Below, piece by piece: positions 1 through 6,357 of a stretch of DNA of 6,357 nt. Below the pieces are notes generated by a model that saw only the letters and a list, made by a program, of their open reading frames with translations, ran no database searches and was not told the origin of the DNA. A program made the position numbers and the translations under genes. The stretch lies in the UHGV virus genome UHGV-1371426. One strand, given 5' to 3'. Each line of letters opens with the position of its first letter. The stretch's first letter is position 1. This DNA comes from a virus.

Positions 1-122
1 TCCAAAATCGTTTGCGGAAACTTGATAATATATAAGCAACTGACACACCTTGTGTATCAACCGTTTACGGTCATTGCGATTTGATGTAAAGTGCTCCTTC
101 TGTGAGCTGGAATATATAAATT
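1..122 (+). promoter_or_regulatory. Non-coding leader upstream of the replication initiator gene. It probably carries the Rep promoter, and if the genome is circular it is contiguous with the terminator at the window end.
   Basis: No ORF is present. The region is AT-rich, with TTTG (11-14) followed about 20 nt later by TA-rich tataat-like stretches (taatatataag 27-37; aatatataaatt 111-122) directly before the ATG at 123. This loosely resembles Bacteroidetes -33/-7 type promoters, but I could not pin down an exact match. Confidence 0.25.
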
Positions 123-1511
123 ATGAATGAAAAAATATTTTGTCTTGATCCTGTAATTATACAGGCACATACATTGGCTTACAATTTGTCTATATATAAG
201 CGTTATCATACTCCTAATGGTATGGTGTTTATTAACGAAGATGTTGCCGCAACGTATCGTTATTATTTCCCTAAATACAAGTATTCCTGTCGTCGTTTAG
301 GTGTAACCATTGATAATATAGATGAGTTTTATATACCCACATTTGATGGTGAAATTATATCTATGTTTATGGTCGTTCCCTGTGGTAAGTGTAATCTCTG
401 CCGTGACAAGAAGAAGCGTGAATGGTCATTTCGTGCTATTTGTGAGAATGTGTATTCTACCTCTCAACCTCTGTTTATTACATGTACATATAATCCTAGG
501 CATTTGCCCGAACATGGTGTATTTAAGGAAGAATTTCAATTATTTATGAAACGTCTCCGTATAAACTTAACTCGCAAAGGTATTGATTCCTCAAACATTC
601 GTTATTTTGCTGTTGGCGAGTATGGTCATAAATCCGGTCGCCCTCATTACCATGCTATATTATGGTCATTTCCTTCTGAACATTTCCCAAACATTACCGC
701 CGTATTACATTTCATTGAACGTTGTTGGCGTGTACCTACCGGAGAATATTTTTCTGACGGTATGCCTGTTACTGATTCCCTTGGTTTCTGTCTTGTAAAA
801 CCCTGTGATAAAGGTGTTATTTCCTATGTTATGAAATATATGAGAAAAGAGCCTGCTGTTCCTAAAGGTTGTAACCCTGTATTCTTTCTGTCTTCTCGCA
901 AAAATGGAGGTCTCGGTGCTCGTTATGCTCGTGATCATAAAGATTTCTATATGAAACACCCTGAATGTCTAGATATGTCTGTTACAGATCCGTTTTCCGG
1001 TAAAACTGAAACTGCATTCCTCCCTTCGTATTTTAAACGACTATATTATCCTAGTAACTCCTCTGTATTGGATAAACCTACCCGTGATGCATTTAAGAAG
1101 TTTACACTACTTATTTCCGAACGTATCCAAAATGAATATCAATTAAACAAATTACTCGGAGATCCCCTTCGACCAAAGGTTTCAAATCTTGAAAAAGAAA
1201 TCTATAAGAAGTTTTGGTTTTTGAAAGTACAAACCTATTGCAAACCCGAAATACTTAATCCTGATTCCCGCTATTATAATCGCATTTATAAGCGTAATCT
1301 TGCTATTGAGTTGGAATTAGACTATTACATTCGTTTCTTATCATTAGTAACCTATGACGAGACGTATATTTCTGTCCGTTCTGAACTGCTTGAAAAAAGA
1401 GACTTTTCTCTTAAACGTAGATTTGCTTCAAAAGAACAGGTGGATTTAAATGATGTTAATTACAACATAATTCAAAGCATAAAACTTTCATATGAAAAAG
1501 AAATATTGTAA
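123..1511 (+). CDS. Rolling-circle replication initiation protein (Microviridae VP4 / phiX174 gpA-like HUH endonuclease).
   Basis: 462-aa ORF. The three HUH superfamily motifs are in canonical order: motif I LFITCTYNP (aa 117-125), motif II GRPHYHAILW (HYH at aa 175-177, nt 645-653), motif III VISYVMKYMRK with two tyrosines spaced YxxKY (aa 235-239, nt 825-839), as in phiX174 gpA. There is a CxxCxxC cluster (CGKCNLC, aa 86-92) upstream of motif I. An in-frame stop TAA at 117-119 lies just before the first ATG. Confidence 0.9.
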   Translation: MNEKIFCLDPVIIQAHTLAYNLSIYKRYHTPNGMVFINEDVAATYRYYFPKYKYSCRRLGVTIDNIDEFYIPTFDGEIISMFMVVPCGKCNLCRDKKKREWSFRAICENVYSTSQPLFITCTYNPRHLPEHGVFKEEFQLFMKRLRINLTRKGIDSSNIRYFAVGEYGHKSGRPHYHAILWSFPSEHFPNITAVLHFIERCWRVPTGEYFSDGMPVTDSLGFCLVKPCDKGVISYVMKYMRKEPAVPKGCNPVFFLSSRKNGGLGARYARDHKDFYMKHPECLDMSVTDPFSGKTETAFLPSYFKRLYYPSNSSVLDKPTRDAFKKFTLLISERIQNEYQLNKLLGDPLRPKVSNLEKEIYKKFWFLKVQTYCKPEILNPDSRYYNRIYKRNLAIELELDYYIRFLSLVTYDETYISVRSELLEKRDFSLKRRFASKEQVDLNDVNYNIIQSIKLSYEKEIL

Positions 1512-1543
1512 ATTTGTAGTATAATCAAAAAAGAGATATAACT

Positions 1544-1729
1544 ATGAAGCTAAAATTAACATTTAAATCGGCAGACAAGAGTACTAAAAGGAAAGTAATT
1601 AAAGTAGACGCTTACACTTTGATGTCTTTGTTAAACGATGAAGCCGTTATTGAGATTGCCAAACAAGTATATGATGGCACTTATGAGAAATCTGGATTTT
1701 ATCTTTCTTCCATCTCTGATAATGATTAA
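1544..1729 (+). CDS. Hypothetical small protein (61 aa), with a basic N-terminus and an acidic C-terminus.
   Basis: ORF in the Rep-capsid interval on the coding strand, with an ATG 32 nt after the Rep stop preceded by the A-rich aaaaagagatataact. Its composition is balanced and not low-complexity. No family could be recognised by eye. Confidence 0.4.
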   Translation: MKLKLTFKSADKSTKRKVIKVDAYTLMSLLNDEAVIEIAKQVYDGTYEKSGFYLSSISDND

Positions 1730-1837
1730 TATGAAAAAAGAATCTAGAGATTATTGCAAAGCTTCAAATTTTGAACTTGTAGGCGTTGTTGAAAAGCAAG
1801 CTTTAATGATAATTTTCAAATTTTTAATAGTTAAATT

Positions 1838-2065
1838 ATGGAAAAACCAACCAAACTTTATGGATCTTTGGAAATTGTTTCACGTGAAACACTCCAACCG
1901 CTACTCACTATTAATATTGGTGAGCTTCGAAGACCATCTCAGCTTGAAAGTATGCGTGCTTCTATTTCGGATAATAATCCGCATTTTATTGTTCTTGCTT
2001 CGTTTGAAGAGGTTGTTAACCCCGCTTATTCCCCCTTAAAGGATGAAAAAGGAACAGATTTATGA
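1838..2065 (+). CDS. Hypothetical small protein (75 aa).
   Basis: ORF on the coding strand with protein-like composition (MEKPTKLYGSLEIVSRETLQ...). It overlaps the next ORF by 23 nt in a different frame, the tight overlapping packing typical of microviruses. No recognisable motif. Confidence 0.4.
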   Translation: MEKPTKLYGSLEIVSRETLQPLLTINIGELRRPSQLESMRASISDNNPHFIVLASFEEVVNPAYSPLKDEKGTDL

Positions 2066-2237
2066 GATTGTAAAAATTGTAGCTACGGCGATTATTTCTG
2101 TAGCTGCTGTACTTTTCTTGGATAGCTGTACCGCTAGTATGTCTATCTTTAAGAATAATTCAGGTAGTTCTCAGAATACCGAACAGAGTTCAACATTACG
2201 TGCTGATAGCACTAGTATAAACATTAAATATAAATAA
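2043..2237 (+). CDS. Small secreted or membrane protein (64 aa) with an N-terminal signal-peptide/TM segment ending in Cys. Candidate lipoprotein or single-pass membrane protein.
   Basis: MKKEQIYEIVK (charged n-region), then IVATAIISVAAVLFL (hydrophobic core of 15-18 residues), then DSC (lipobox-like L-x-x-C with Cys at about 29). The tail is polar and Ser/Asn/Thr/Gln-rich (about 35 aa). The stop at 2235-2237 lies 1 nt before the capsid ATG at 2239, which suggests translational coupling to the capsid gene. Confidence 0.5.
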   Translation: MKKEQIYEIVKIVATAIISVAAVLFLDSCTASMSIFKNNSGSSQNTEQSSTLRADSTSINIKYK

Positions 2238-2238
2238 T

Positions 2239-3972
2239 ATGGCAAACATTTGGAATGCTACCCTAGAACCTAACAATAATGTAGAACAAAATACATTTGA
2301 TTGGACGCATGTTAACAACATTACCACTCAAATAGGTCGTATTACTCCTATTCAGTGTGAATTAGTCCCTGCAAAAACATCTTTTCGTGTAAAACCTATT
2401 CCGGCATTGCAGCTTATGCCTATGGTGTTCCCTGTGCAAACACGCATGCGTGCTAGTATCGCTTATTTCCGGTATCCTCTTCGTGCTCTTTGGAAGGATT
2501 ACAAGGATTTTATAGGAAACTTCCGTGAAGGACTTGAAGAGCCTTACCATGATTTTAACAGCCAGAACCTTTTAGAAAAGATGCTAGGCACAGGTAAGCT
2601 TATGGATTATCTTGGTGTACCGACTACTCTTATAGGCAAGTACGGTAACCCCCAGTCGGGTTCTCTTCCCGTCTTTCATAACGCGCAGCCTTCTTCTGTC
2701 TTTTCTGGCTTGAATGTCACTCCTTCCGTTGCCTATAATGAGATTTTAAACAATGTCAGTGATGTCACTTCTTTATACGGTACTGCTCCTGTCGGTTCTA
2801 ACTCTTGGGTTTATTCGTTTTATGAATTTGCTGAATTCGTCGAGTCAATTGATGTGGTTACTGCAAAGTTTACCCTTACATATAACGGAGACGCCCCTCT
2901 TAATAGTTTAGCTTCCTCTCCTATTTTTACTTTTGTTGCTAGTACTGGCGTTGCTGCTGTTTTTTACGCCTCTCAACGAAATAATGTTTCTTATTTTGTT
3001 TCAGGTAAACAGATTGAATATACTTTAACGCTTCGGAAAGAGGATCTACTCAGTACCTATGATCTTGCTAATATTACCGGATTAGGAATACTACTCCCTA
3101 ACTTTTTAAATAATGGAGGTTTCTTTAATTCTGCTAATTCTCCCTTGTTTTCTCTTACGCCGATCACTATTAACAATGTTTCTGGTTCTGGTAATGTTTC
3201 TGGTCTATCATTAACTACTTCCCCTTATTATAACTCAAATTCGTCTAATAAAAATAAACAGATTAAACTTTCCGCTTATGCAGCTCGTGCATATGAAGGT
3301 ATTTATAATTCCGTTTATCGTGACAATCGTAACAACCCATATTATATTGATGGCGTTGTACAATATAATCAATGGATCCCGTCTTACGATGGTGGAGCTG
3401 ACACATATCCTTATGAATTACGTTATGCTAATTGGGAAAAAGATTTTCTTACAACTTCCGTCCAATCACCACAGCAAGGCAATGCGCCTCTTGTAGGTAT
3501 TACTACTTACGATCAGATTTCTAGAGTTTACGACGAACAAGGCAATCCGACATTAACGCAAAATACAAAAGTAGCTATGGTTGACGAAGATGGAAAACGT
3601 TATTCTCTTGAGTTTGAATCTGATAACGACGAGTTGAAAGGTGTCAAATATGTAGAGCTCGATAATGGTACAACTGTCCGTTCTGCGCGTTCGCTTTTTG
3701 ATTTGGTGACTAGCGGTATCTCCATCACTGATTTACGTAATGTAAACGCATACCAGAAGTTCTTGGAGCTTAATATGCGCAAAGGTTATTCATACAAAGA
3801 GATTATTGAAGGTCGTTTTGACGTCAAAGTACGTTATGCTGATTTATTGTTACCTGAGTTCTTTGGCGGCTTCTCTCGTGATATCAATATGAATGCTATT
3901 TCACAAACTGTAGACCAAACTGCTGAAGGTGAAGGCTCTTACAAGGATGTTCTTGCTCTCAAGCCGGTGTAG
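2239..3972 (+). CDS. Major capsid protein (Microviridae VP1 / phiX174 F-like), N-terminal about 577 aa. The gene appears to continue in another frame (see 4035..4487).
   Basis: The N-terminal region TTQIGRITPIQCELVPAKTSF matches the conserved microvirus capsid N-terminal motif (G-x-L-x-P-I...E-V-L-P-G-D-T-F in gokushovirus VP1). It is the largest ORF and sits in the expected position. An internal Ser/Asn-rich low-complexity segment (aa about 296-340) is consistent with the hypervariable surface insertion loop. The ORF ends at TAG 3970-3972, but the conserved C-terminal capsid sequence is only found downstream in frame 3. Confidence 0.88.
   Translation: MANIWNATLEPNNNVEQNTFDWTHVNNITTQIGRITPIQCELVPAKTSFRVKPIPALQLMPMVFPVQTRMRASIAYFRYPLRALWKDYKDFIGNFREGLEEPYHDFNSQNLLEKMLGTGKLMDYLGVPTTLIGKYGNPQSGSLPVFHNAQPSSVFSGLNVTPSVAYNEILNNVSDVTSLYGTAPVGSNSWVYSFYEFAEFVESIDVVTAKFTLTYNGDAPLNSLASSPIFTFVASTGVAAVFYASQRNNVSYFVSGKQIEYTLTLRKEDLLSTYDLANITGLGILLPNFLNNGGFFNSANSPLFSLTPITINNVSGSGNVSGLSLTTSPYYNSNSSNKNKQIKLSAYAARAYEGIYNSVYRDNRNNPYYIDGVVQYNQWIPSYDGGADTYPYELRYANWEKDFLTTSVQSPQQGNAPLVGITTYDQISRVYDEQGNPTLTQNTKVAMVDEDGKRYSLEFESDNDELKGVKYVELDNGTTVRSARSLFDLVTSGISITDLRNVNAYQKFLELNMRKGYSYKEIIEGRFDVKVRYADLLLPEFFGGFSRDINMNAISQTVDQTAEGEGSYKDVLALKPV
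3933..3972 (+). other. Frame-overlap junction inside the capsid gene. Frame 1 (N-terminal part) and frame 3 (C-terminal part) are both open here, so a net -1 shift in this 40-nt window would fuse them.
   Basis: Frame 3 has stops at 3924-3926 (TGA) and 3930-3932 (TGA) and is then open from 3933 through 4487, while frame 1 stops at TAG 3970-3972. No canonical X_XXY_YYZ slippery heptamer is visible in the overlap. If TAG were read through, frame 1 would still hit TAA at 4048-4050. Confidence 0.6.
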
Positions 3973-4034
3973 GTTATTTTCGTGGAGGTTCTGATGCTAA
4001 CATTGAATGCTTCTGTGATGAAGAAAGTATTATT

Positions 4035-4487
4035 ATGGGTCTATTGGTAATTACCCCGTTGCCTGTTTATACCCAATTACTACCGAAACATTTCTTATAT
4101 CGTGGACTCTTAGATCATTTTAATCCTGAGTTTAATAATATATCGTTTCAGCCGATTACTTATAAGGAAGTATGTCCAATTCAGGCGTATAATGATAACC
4201 CTGATTCATTGACGGAAACCTTTGGTTATCAAAGACCGTGGTATGAATACTGTCAACGTTATGACCAAGCGCATGGCTTATTCCGTACTAATTTGTCTAA
4301 CTTCTTGATGCATCGAGTGTTTGACCAAAAGCCGGAACTTGCCCAAAGCTTCTTAATGATAGACCCCGACCAAGTTACAGATGTGTTTAGTGTTACAGAT
4401 GTTACCGACAAAGTTTACGGACAAATTTTGATAGAGTGTACGGCTAAACTCCCTGTCGCTCGTGTTGCAATACCGCGTCTTGACTAG
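4035..4487 (+). CDS. C-terminal portion of the major capsid protein (VP1/F-like), encoded in the -1 frame relative to 2239..3972. The open frame begins at 3933, and the ATG at 4035 is probably not a genuine start.
   Basis: The translation contains a stretch resembling the conserved C-terminal region of Microviridae capsid proteins (FGYQRPWYEYCQRYDQAHGLFR...FLMHRVF...). There is no RBS-like spacing or independent start context. The frame is open well upstream of the ATG and overlaps the end of the 577-aa ORF. The combined length of about 750 aa suits a large-capsid microvirus. Confidence 0.72.
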   Translation: MGLLVITPLPVYTQLLPKHFLYRGLLDHFNPEFNNISFQPITYKEVCPIQAYNDNPDSLTETFGYQRPWYEYCQRYDQAHGLFRTNLSNFLMHRVFDQKPELAQSFLMIDPDQVTDVFSVTDVTDKVYGQILIECTAKLPVARVAIPRLD

Positions 4488-4585
4488 TCGGTGAAAAAGA
4501 GAATGTTTTTTCTTTTTTTCTTCCGACACTGCCTCATTAAGCAGAACGAGCGACATAGCCAAGGGTTCTTGTAGTAAAAATTGTT

Positions 4586-4619
4586 AAATGCGTGCGCGCG
4601 CTTGCGTGTGCGCGTATTT
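4586..4619. repeat. GC-rich alternating purine-pyrimidine quasi-palindrome (aaatgcgtgcgcgcgc ttgcgtgtgcgcgtattt) in the main intergenic region. Candidate hairpin, origin or primosome-assembly element, with Z-DNA-prone sequence.
   Basis: Seen directly in the sequence. A 14-nt perfectly alternating Pu/Py tract (4588-4601) and a 15-nt one (4603-4617) flank a tt break. The arms are imperfectly complementary (about 12 of 16 positions), with AAAT/ATTT ends. The GC content is strikingly high against the surrounding AT-rich non-coding DNA. Confidence 0.5.
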
Positions 4620-4710
4620 AATCATTTTTAGTGCAAGGTTCATTGGACATGTCGAGCGTTCTATCTTATCTTTGCAGTTTCGTAAGATTAAAAGTAAAAG
4701 GATTCTCTCC

Positions 4711-4724
4711 CCGGCGTATGCCGG
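4711..4724 (+). promoter_or_regulatory. Small GC stem-loop ccggc-gtat-gccgg (5-bp stem, 4-nt loop).
   Basis: Perfect inverted repeat seen in sequence. It is not followed by a T-run, so it is unlikely to be an intrinsic terminator. It lies 52 nt upstream of the ORF at 4776. Confidence 0.35.
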
Positions 4725-4732
4725 ACAAAATA

Positions 4733-4745
4733 GCAACTTTGTTGC
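4733..4745 (+). promoter_or_regulatory. Small stem-loop gcaac-ttt-gttgc (5-bp stem, 3-nt loop).
   Basis: Perfect inverted repeat seen in sequence, 9 nt after the previous hairpin and 31 nt upstream of the ATG at 4776. Confidence 0.3.
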
Positions 4746-4775
4746 GTGAAAATAAACAATTAAAAATGAAAAATT

Positions 4776-5087
4776 ATGGCAAAAAGAATTTTTAAAGCAC
4801 AACTTAACCCTTGTCAGTGCGTACACAATCCTGAGACCGACCATATTTGTACAAAACCTGGTTTAGCGCTTACACCAAGTGATATTAAGGCTCTAACCGA
4901 CAAAGGTATAGCCGTTTCTTTGCCGAATGCGCAAAATTTCCTTTCACCACAAGAAGGTGCTAGTTGGAATGTCGAACCGCAATTCAGGCGAGATGCAACG
5001 ATGTGTTCTGTATGGGAAACCGAAAAGCTTTCACAAAAACGCGTAATGAATGCACAAAAGTCTGACATTCAATTATATGGAGAGTAG
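4776..5087 (+). CDS. Hypothetical 103-aa protein with a Cys/His cluster (possible small zinc-binding protein), located between the capsid and pilot genes.
   Basis: ORF on the coding strand whose stop TAG (5085-5087) lies 3 nt before the VP2 ATG (5091), which suggests co-translation. The N-terminal region carries C13, C15, H17, H23 and C25 (NPCQCVHNPETDHIC). Composition is protein-like. No family recognised. Confidence 0.45.
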   Translation: MAKRIFKAQLNPCQCVHNPETDHICTKPGLALTPSDIKALTDKGIAVSLPNAQNFLSPQEGASWNVEPQFRRDATMCSVWETEKLSQKRVMNAQKSDIQLYGE

Positions 5088-5090
5088 CTT

Positions 5091-6317
5091 ATGGGATTTT
5101 TAAGTAAATTAAACCCGAATAGTTGGTTTGGCTCTGCCCTTAGTGGCGGAGCTTCCCTTATTGGTAATGTTGTCGGCAATATTCAACAGAATGCCAATAT
5201 TGACAAACAAATAGCCTTTCAACGCGAGGAAAACGAGAGAGCAAGAGCATTTAATAAGGCTATGGCAGAACAAGCAAATCAATGGAGTATAGACCAATGG
5301 AATAGAGAAAATCAGTATAATAGTCCTGAAGCTATGCGCCAACGTCTTCGTGACGCAGGTGTTAATGCTGATTTATTCTACGGTGGTAATGCACAAAATA
5401 CTGCCTCTTCTTCCCCTTCAGTTACTCCTGTTGCTCCTGCTATACCTACGGACGTTTCTGCTATCGGACAGAAGGCTACGATTGGAGATATTACCAACAA
5501 TGTTGTAAACCAATCTCTTGCAGCTGCACAGATTCGGAAGCTAGAAGCTGATAAAGGCAAGACAAAACAAGAAACTGAAAATCTTAAGATTGAAGGTAAA
5601 ATCCTCTCTGCTGATGCTCTCACTCGTGCCGCACTAAATGAGCAGGCTTTAGAAATTGGACGATCTACCATTTATGTGAATCATTCTATTGGAAAGCTGA
5701 ATCACAAAGAGGCTGAGTTAGCTTCTGCCCGTATAACCGAAGCTGCTGCTAATGCAAATTTATTGTACCAGAAGGCAGATGAAGTGAAAGCTAATATTCG
5801 GAATATCAATGCGAATACAGCCGCTACTCGTTTTGGCATGATGATGCGCTCTAAAGAATTCCGCCAGCGTGTTGCCGAATTTCAAGAACAGGTTCGTGTT
5901 AATGATTCTACTATACGCTTGAATTATGAACAGGCTGCTACCTTCCTTGCCACTCGTGCTGCTACTGTATTGAATATAAATGCCGATACAGCTTTAAAAT
6001 CTGCTGGTGTTAAGACGCAGTATACTACCCGCACCGAAATACGTGCTCGCACTAGTATGTATGAAAAGCTTGACCGCCTTGTGAATATTCAGGGAGACCA
6101 AGCTGCGTTTAATCTTGACTCGGATAAGACTTTCAAGAATCTTGAACGTGGTGTTGGTTTAGCTACTGGTATTGTTGATTCTCTTTCTGGTGTTATCCAA
6201 TCTGCCGGTTCCTTTATTTCCGGAAGTGGTTCTATGCTTGGAGGTCTTGGTTCTCTACAAAACTCCATGAATCATATTCCTACCGCTCATAAACCTGTCG
6301 GTGGTTTCAGACACTAA
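5091..6317 (+). CDS. DNA pilot / minor capsid protein (Microviridae VP2, functional analogue of phiX174 gpH).
   Basis: 408 aa. The N-terminus is Gly-rich (SWFGSALSGGASLIGNVVGN), followed by the conserved VP2 motif QYNSPEAMRQRLRDAGVNADLFYGG (aa 75-99, compare YNSP..Q..RL..AG.NP in gokushovirus VP2). A long Ala/Glu/Lys/Asn/Gln-rich central region is consistent with a coiled coil, and the C-terminus has a Gly/Ser-rich tail (SGSGSMLGGLGSL). Confidence 0.85.
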   Translation: MGFLSKLNPNSWFGSALSGGASLIGNVVGNIQQNANIDKQIAFQREENERARAFNKAMAEQANQWSIDQWNRENQYNSPEAMRQRLRDAGVNADLFYGGNAQNTASSSPSVTPVAPAIPTDVSAIGQKATIGDITNNVVNQSLAAAQIRKLEADKGKTKQETENLKIEGKILSADALTRAALNEQALEIGRSTIYVNHSIGKLNHKEAELASARITEAAANANLLYQKADEVKANIRNINANTAATRFGMMMRSKEFRQRVAEFQEQVRVNDSTIRLNYEQAATFLATRAATVLNINADTALKSAGVKTQYTTRTEIRARTSMYEKLDRLVNIQGDQAAFNLDSDKTFKNLERGVGLATGIVDSLSGVIQSAGSFISGSGSMLGGLGSLQNSMNHIPTAHKPVGGFRH

Positions 6318-6324
6318 TGTAATT

Positions 6325-6348
6325 GGCGTCCCTGTTCGGACGCCTTTT
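6325..6348 (+). terminator. Rho-independent terminator-like hairpin after VP2.
   Basis: ggcgtcc (6325-6331), loop ctgttc, ggacgcc (6338-6344): a perfect 7-bp GC-rich stem followed immediately by TTTT (6345-6348), starting 8 nt after the VP2 stop. Confidence 0.55.
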
Positions 6349-6357
6349 ACGATTTCT

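Follow-up and report, generated by a model that had tools for sequence, protein, structure and literature searches.

The closest GenBank record to the virus considered here is Rattus norvegicus microvirus ON840045.1, whose major capsid protein, VP1 (WDY38287.1), is encoded by an uninterrupted open reading frame (ORF) of 750 amino acids (aa). The stretch of DNA analyzed in the present work, referred to below as the window, is the UHGV virus genome UHGV-1371426 at its full length of 6,357 nucleotides (nt). The VP1 gene that it carries is colinear with that of ON840045 over its whole length, with 89% aa and 80% nt identity, and the junction motif LGSQAGVGYFRGG is common to both. The two differ by 3 nt at the N-terminus, by the GGT that ON840045 has at a glycine codon which is damaged in the window, and by the fact that the VP1 of the window is divided between two reading frames. 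The arrangement is one capsid gene in two frames and not a chance arrangement of ORFs, and the split is almost certainly a private deletion of 1 nt in a single VP1 gene rather than a designed division.

The interrupted VP1 gene and the position of the lost base

The frame-1 ORF of VP1 begins at 2239 on the plus strand and stops at a TAG at 3970-3972, yielding 577 aa. Frame 3 is closed upstream by a TGA at 3930-3932 (+), which sets the 5' limit of the two-frame overlap, and is then open from 3933 to a TAG at 4485-4487, such that the two frames share 40 nt (3933-3972). These boundaries agree with those given in an initial annotation made from the sequence alone, which also held that readthrough of the first TAG would not rescue the gene. 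Readthrough is indeed excluded, as frame 1 reaches a TAA at 4048-4050 and the conserved part lies in a different frame. The same annotation took the frame-3 ORF for the conserved C-terminus of the capsid protein, and profile searches bear this out. The N-terminal part matches positions 126-319 of Pfam Phage_F (PF02305; E = 1.3e-24, 87.3 bits) and the match of the frame-3 part extends over positions 346-499 of the 501 in this profile (E = 5.2e-12, 45.7 bits), both above the Pfam gathering cut-off of 25 bits for the family. PHROG 514 ('major head protein') is split likewise, into positions 18-337 and 347-515 of 531. No single frame of the window spans the whole Phage_F profile, the split between frames 1 and 3 falling at 3955-3956, and one continuous frame does so once a G is restored there.

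The position of this G is given by other assemblies of the same virus. An exact-sequence look-up of the replication initiator (Rep), pilot (VP2), 103-aa and 64-aa proteins of the window retrieved eight contigs of the same virus (L030 to L037), which derive from the ENA assemblies ERZ501087, ERZ501096, ERZ501110 and ERZ501111 and from the Logan runs SRR3740125, SRR3740127 and SRR3740128. Three of the eight cover the junction with the VP1 type of the window; they were assembled independently from three ENA samples and are 99.9-100% identical to it. Contig L034 (ERZ501111 NODE_3, 62x coverage) aligns with window 2075-6357 (4,283 nt) with no mismatch and a single gap, an extra G after 3954, which is the sole difference between the two over this range. 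The same extra G is found in L030 (ERZ501110; window 2874-6357, two mismatches) and in L037 (ERZ501096 NODE_8; window 1-4580, four mismatches, all substitutions). Window 3952-3959 reads CTTGCTCT, as opposed to CTTGGCTCT in all three contigs; the Gly573 codon (GGC to GC) lacks one of its two G, between 3954 and 3956. The deletion is private to the window sequence, and otherwise identical genomes are intact. VP1 is called as a protein of 749 aa in L034 and L037, while the copy in L030 runs into the contig end and gives a partial call of 538 aa that is in frame across the lesion site. With the G restored, the VP1 of the window has 749 aa and matches P0001, a database protein that L034 and L037 encode, at 100% identity over its entire length.

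The gene can accordingly be laid out in three pieces, all on the plus strand. Codons 1-572 occupy 2239..3954 in frame 1, ending with Leu572 (CTT, 3952-3954); they carry the Phage_F and PHROG 514 matches of the listed ORF, and residues 1-572 are identical to those of P0001. The dinucleotide GC at 3955..3956 is the remnant of the Gly573 codon, which is GGC in the near-identical contigs, and constitutes the frame-breaking lesion. Codons 574-749, with the TAG stop, occupy 3957..4487, now in frame 3 (SQAGVGYFRGG...AIPRLD, then the stop), as is evident from the translation, from the match to Phage_F positions 346-499 and from third-position substitutions. Past the lesion, frame 1 yields the out-of-frame tail ALKPV (3955-3969) before the premature TAG at 3970..3972. 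L034 and L037 have the same gene order as the window (Rep, the 61-aa, 75-aa and 64-aa ORFs, VP1, the 103-aa ORF and VP2), and the Rep, VP2, 103-aa and 64-aa proteins have exact matches on the near-identical contigs, although not every one of them on both L034 and L037. They differ from the window in having GGC instead of GC at Gly573, so that their VP1 is one ORF of 749 aa.

Comparison with ON840045 leads to the same position. An alignment of the whole gene at the DNA level contains a single internal gap, at the Gly573 codon, where GAT GTT CTT -GC TCT CAA GCC GGT in the window faces GAT GCT CTT GGT TCT CAA GCC GGT in ON840045. The initial annotation had listed a 1-nt deletion among its explanations and had suggested that related VP1 sequences be aligned across the junction to find the exact frame switch; the alignments to the contigs and to ON840045 uphold the deletion and place the switch at the lost G, at 3955-3956. 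The part of the gene downstream of the lesion is, as its codon changes show, still under strong purifying selection in frame 3. Across the 176 codons past the lesion, the window differs from ON840045 at 12, 5 and 86 sites in frame-3 codon positions 1, 2 and 3, respectively, with 79 synonymous versus 10 non-synonymous codon changes. The corresponding figures against a co-circulating strain with a VP1 of 737 aa are 7, 0 and 43 sites, with 44 synonymous and 4 non-synonymous changes.

The intact frame extends well beyond this virus. Among 37 loci fetched from GenBank, IMG/VR, ENA, Logan and two Bacteroides genome contigs, the in-frame motif L-G-S-Q-[A/S]-G was present in all 40 VP1 copies, its glycine encoded by GGT, GGC or GGA, the window being the sole exception; a split VP1 was found in none of them, nor in any of the 29 loci tested by tblastn, where the match kept to one frame on both sides of the junction. 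Each of the 120 best protein relatives is an unbroken chain, 696-811 aa in length, and none is truncated at the junction. They have in common the motif LGSQaGvgyfrG..daNIECFCDEESIIMGlL, and exactly 182 residues separate the junction from the C-terminus in each. No relative of 577 aa was present among the top protein matches, and exact look-ups of the 577-aa and 150-aa products in a gene-position index of 153 billion gene positions found neither. The junction pattern, in either its G or its GG form, had no matches in IMG/VR and JGI metagenome contigs, a megablast search against GenBank phages matched one record only, at 81.6% identity, and a search of the full-text literature gave no mention of the run and assembly accessions involved. 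At the structural level, residues 314-557 of the solved chain 8des_A align without a break to residues 490-741 of VP1, across the junction, and residues 266-541 of 9cgm_A align to VP1 residues 462-739.

Weighing the origins of the split

In principle, a full-length VP1 could be made from the two frames by programmed -1 ribosomal frameshifting, or by slippage during transcription, within 3933-3972; the change needed is indeed -1 and the frame past the junction is conserved and wholly intact, yet such recoding is very improbable here. The initial annotation had itself noted that no slippery heptamer was recognizable in the overlap, and a scan of 3925-3972 revealed no X XXY YYZ in any frame; none of the P- or A-site codons in the overlap keeps two of its three base pairs after a -1 slip. 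Slippage usually involves a homopolymer of at least six A or T, whereas the overlap has no run of four or more, the only one in 3900-4000 being the TTTT at 3977, past the frame-1 stop. A stimulatory hairpin or pseudoknot is expected 5-9 nt downstream of a slip site, and the RNA of 3958-4060 has a minimum free energy of -17.6 kcal/mol versus an average of -20.1 kcal/mol for shuffled sequence (z = +0.84), 157 of 200 shuffles folding at least as well in a model that does not include pseudoknots. The split layout occurs in 0 of the 40 related VP1 copies, some of them from genomes that match the gene of the window at all its other bases. In T=1 microviruses the major capsid protein is present in 60 copies per virion, a demand that, on general grounds, an inefficient shift devoid of signals would meet poorly, and the full-text literature search found no report of frameshifting in a microvirus VP1, its single hit being a study of virus taxonomy. 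The frameshift that the initial annotation had offered as a third option is rejected on the strength of the intact frame in the three contigs, of the 40 in-frame copies and of the missing signals. Another explanation, which the annotation had named as the case that would speak against one interrupted gene, is that the two ORFs are genes in their own right, one for a capsid protein of 577 aa and one, with its start at the ATG at 4035..4037 (+), for a protein of 150 aa, and its probability is close to negligible. The ORF at 4035-4487 does open with an ATG, but in the junction alignment of the 120 relatives this codon is the internal Met of the conserved ESIIMGLL motif. All 120 closest proteins are continuous through the junction, the alignment with 8des_A is unbroken there, and the conserved residues 574-599, whose codons lie between the lesion and the ATG, would be left untranslated.

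With one gene and one lost base, the deletion itself is probably an artefact, as inferred from the fact that the variant is unique, would be lethal alone and lies in a two-base run of G, and that another assembly of this virus carries a singleton indel of its own. The latter is found in Logan contig L033 (SRR3740125), as a private 1-nt insertion of C at its position 1798 (window 1800), in non-coding sequence between the 61-aa and 75-aa ORFs; it does not occur in L035, L037 or the window and is the second singleton indel among the assemblies of this virus. A miscalled base, an amplification error or an error of consensus or assembly in the two-base run would have dropped one G, moving everything past Leu572 into the -1 frame and bringing frame 1 to a TAG five codons on, while the real virus would make an ordinary full-length capsid protein of 749 codons, with no recoding. 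Some points weigh against an artefact. The lost base belonged to a pair of G and not to a long homopolymer, and assemblies of the Illumina/SPAdes type seldom produce indels at sites of this kind. The comparison, moreover, rests on assembled sequences, in which an artefact and a real mutant genome look alike. It is possible, although distinctly less likely, that the deletion is real and that the window is a defective genome, a very recent loss-of-function mutant, either sampled by chance (e.g., through over-amplification in multiple displacement amplification) or supplied with capsid protein in trans by intact genomes that had co-infected its Bacteroides host cells. The short run at the site of the deletion is in keeping with a real mutation, two strains (with VP1 proteins of 749 and 737 aa) that co-circulate in the same sample series are possible helpers, and zero other differences from L034 fit a very recent event. 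However, the deletion appears in no other assembly, and the intact form is present in all three of the contigs that are 99.9-100% identical; the truncated product is missing from the gene-position index. The lesion also removes the last 177 residues of VP1, which can be aligned to the C-terminal portion of the solved capsid chains and are under strong purifying selection, and a genome with the deletion could not, owing to this loss, propagate alone. The initial annotation had also considered a decaying provirus or pseudogene, but this version finds no support: the window is a unit-length circle without host flanks, it is identical to the intact copy in L034 apart from the indel, and its downstream part bears the marks of purifying selection. 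As there is no other difference from L034 and the downstream part is not decaying, the lesion is either extremely recent or not biological. A further-reaching proposal, namely that genomes with the single G really exist and persist in the gut population as packaged, capsid-defective 'cheaters' which receive VP1 in trans from the 749-aa or the co-circulating 737-aa strain, is unlikely; if true, it would represent a natural defective-interfering microvirus. Were the deletion real and dominant, the window would provide a modest example of a helper-dependent defective microvirus genome. For curation, the record is to be read, or corrected, as one VP1 of 749 aa, since an annotation with two products, a capsid protein of 577 aa and a hypothetical protein of 150 aa, would add a truncated capsid and a spurious orphan to the databases.

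Genome layout and the surroundings of VP1

The window is one unit-length circle of a microvirus genome, its position 6357 being joined to position 1 in the concatemer contig L034 (L034 positions 4284/4285), and the joining of its ends in this contig leaves no host flanks around it. Rep lies at 123-1511 (Pfam REP_ORF2-G2P, PHROG 942) and is followed by three small ORFs of 61, 75 and 64 aa, located between Rep and VP1. VP1 starts at 2239, and on its 3' side lie an ORF of 103 aa (4776-5087) and the pilot protein VP2 (5091-6317; PHROG 8689).

The three contigs that cover the junction (8.1-8.8 kb) exceed one genome unit, and each of them joins two strains, one VP1 copy being of the 749-aa type of the window and the other of the 737-aa type. 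At the DNA level, over the compared range of 2628-4564, the 737-aa type shows no alignable sequence to the window across 2628-3245 and shares about 89.7% identity with it across 3245-4564, while the remaining genome of the two strains, outside the VP1 region, is 98-100% identical. The two types suggest that VP1 carries a surface insertion which is hypervariable or recombining, and that the concatemer assemblies are chimeric.

The 64-aa ORF, at 2043-2237 (+), is directly upstream of VP1, its stop codon (2235-2237) abutting the VP1 start at 2239. The N-terminus of its product resembles that of a lipoprotein, with a hydrophobic stretch followed by ...VLFLDSC..., and an identical protein is called in the near-identical contigs as well as in more distant ones (SRR18467599, SRR12810229 and SRR12810235). 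Searches of this ORF against Pfam and PHROG gave no match; it might encode a lysis or exclusion lipoprotein.

Downstream of VP1, the non-coding region before the 103-aa ORF contains a hairpin of about 130 nt (window 4538-4667), with arms at 4543-4601 and 4604-4662 and a GC-rich apex (GCGTGCGCGCGC/GCGTGTGCGCG). As single-stranded DNA it folds at -33.6 kcal/mol (z = -7.6), and none of 200 shuffles folds as well. Hairpins that share its GCGTGYGCG apex but have other arm sequences are likewise found downstream of VP1 in ON840045 and in an IMG/VR relative. A search of the whole window, hairpin included, against Rfam returned no family match. The position of the element recalls that of the F-G intergenic hairpin of phiX174, a site of primosome assembly, and the hairpin could by analogy act as a complementary-strand origin; alternatively, it could be a recombination site for integration.

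Relatives of VP1 are also found inside Bacteroides contigs, with best-segment identities of 72% in Bacteroides sp. f07 (NZ_BAABXI010000001.1, 3.7 Mb) and 56% in a Bacteroides metagenome-assembled genome (20.9 kb), and several relatives from IMG/VR and Logan are carried by contigs 16-93 kb in length. Integrated forms are thus part of the clade, and Bacteroides is the likely host.

The window among known microviruses and recoding systems

Temperate microviruses have reportedly been described from Bacteroidetes. The relatives found in host contigs correspond to such Bacteroides microvirus proviruses (Alpavirinae-like), whereas the window is a free unit-length circle that has no host flanks and no sign of decay.

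As for recoding, the -1 frameshift sites of dnaX and of the phage tail-assembly chaperone genes G/GT are similar to the junction in the window only in the direction of the shift. Unlike them, the window lacks both a slippery heptamer and a stimulatory structure, and its split is not conserved; it lends no support to recoding in the Microviridae.

The capsid family of the Microviridae, as represented by PF02305, PHROG 514 and the chains 8des_A and 9cgm_A, provides the closest parallel. Both halves of the VP1 of the window match this family colinearly, and the last 250 residues can be aligned to the C-terminal portion of the solved chains. At 749 aa the protein is much longer than these chains (553-566 aa), owing to a large and variable insertion around residues 130-335, and it differs from the rest of the family by its broken reading frame.

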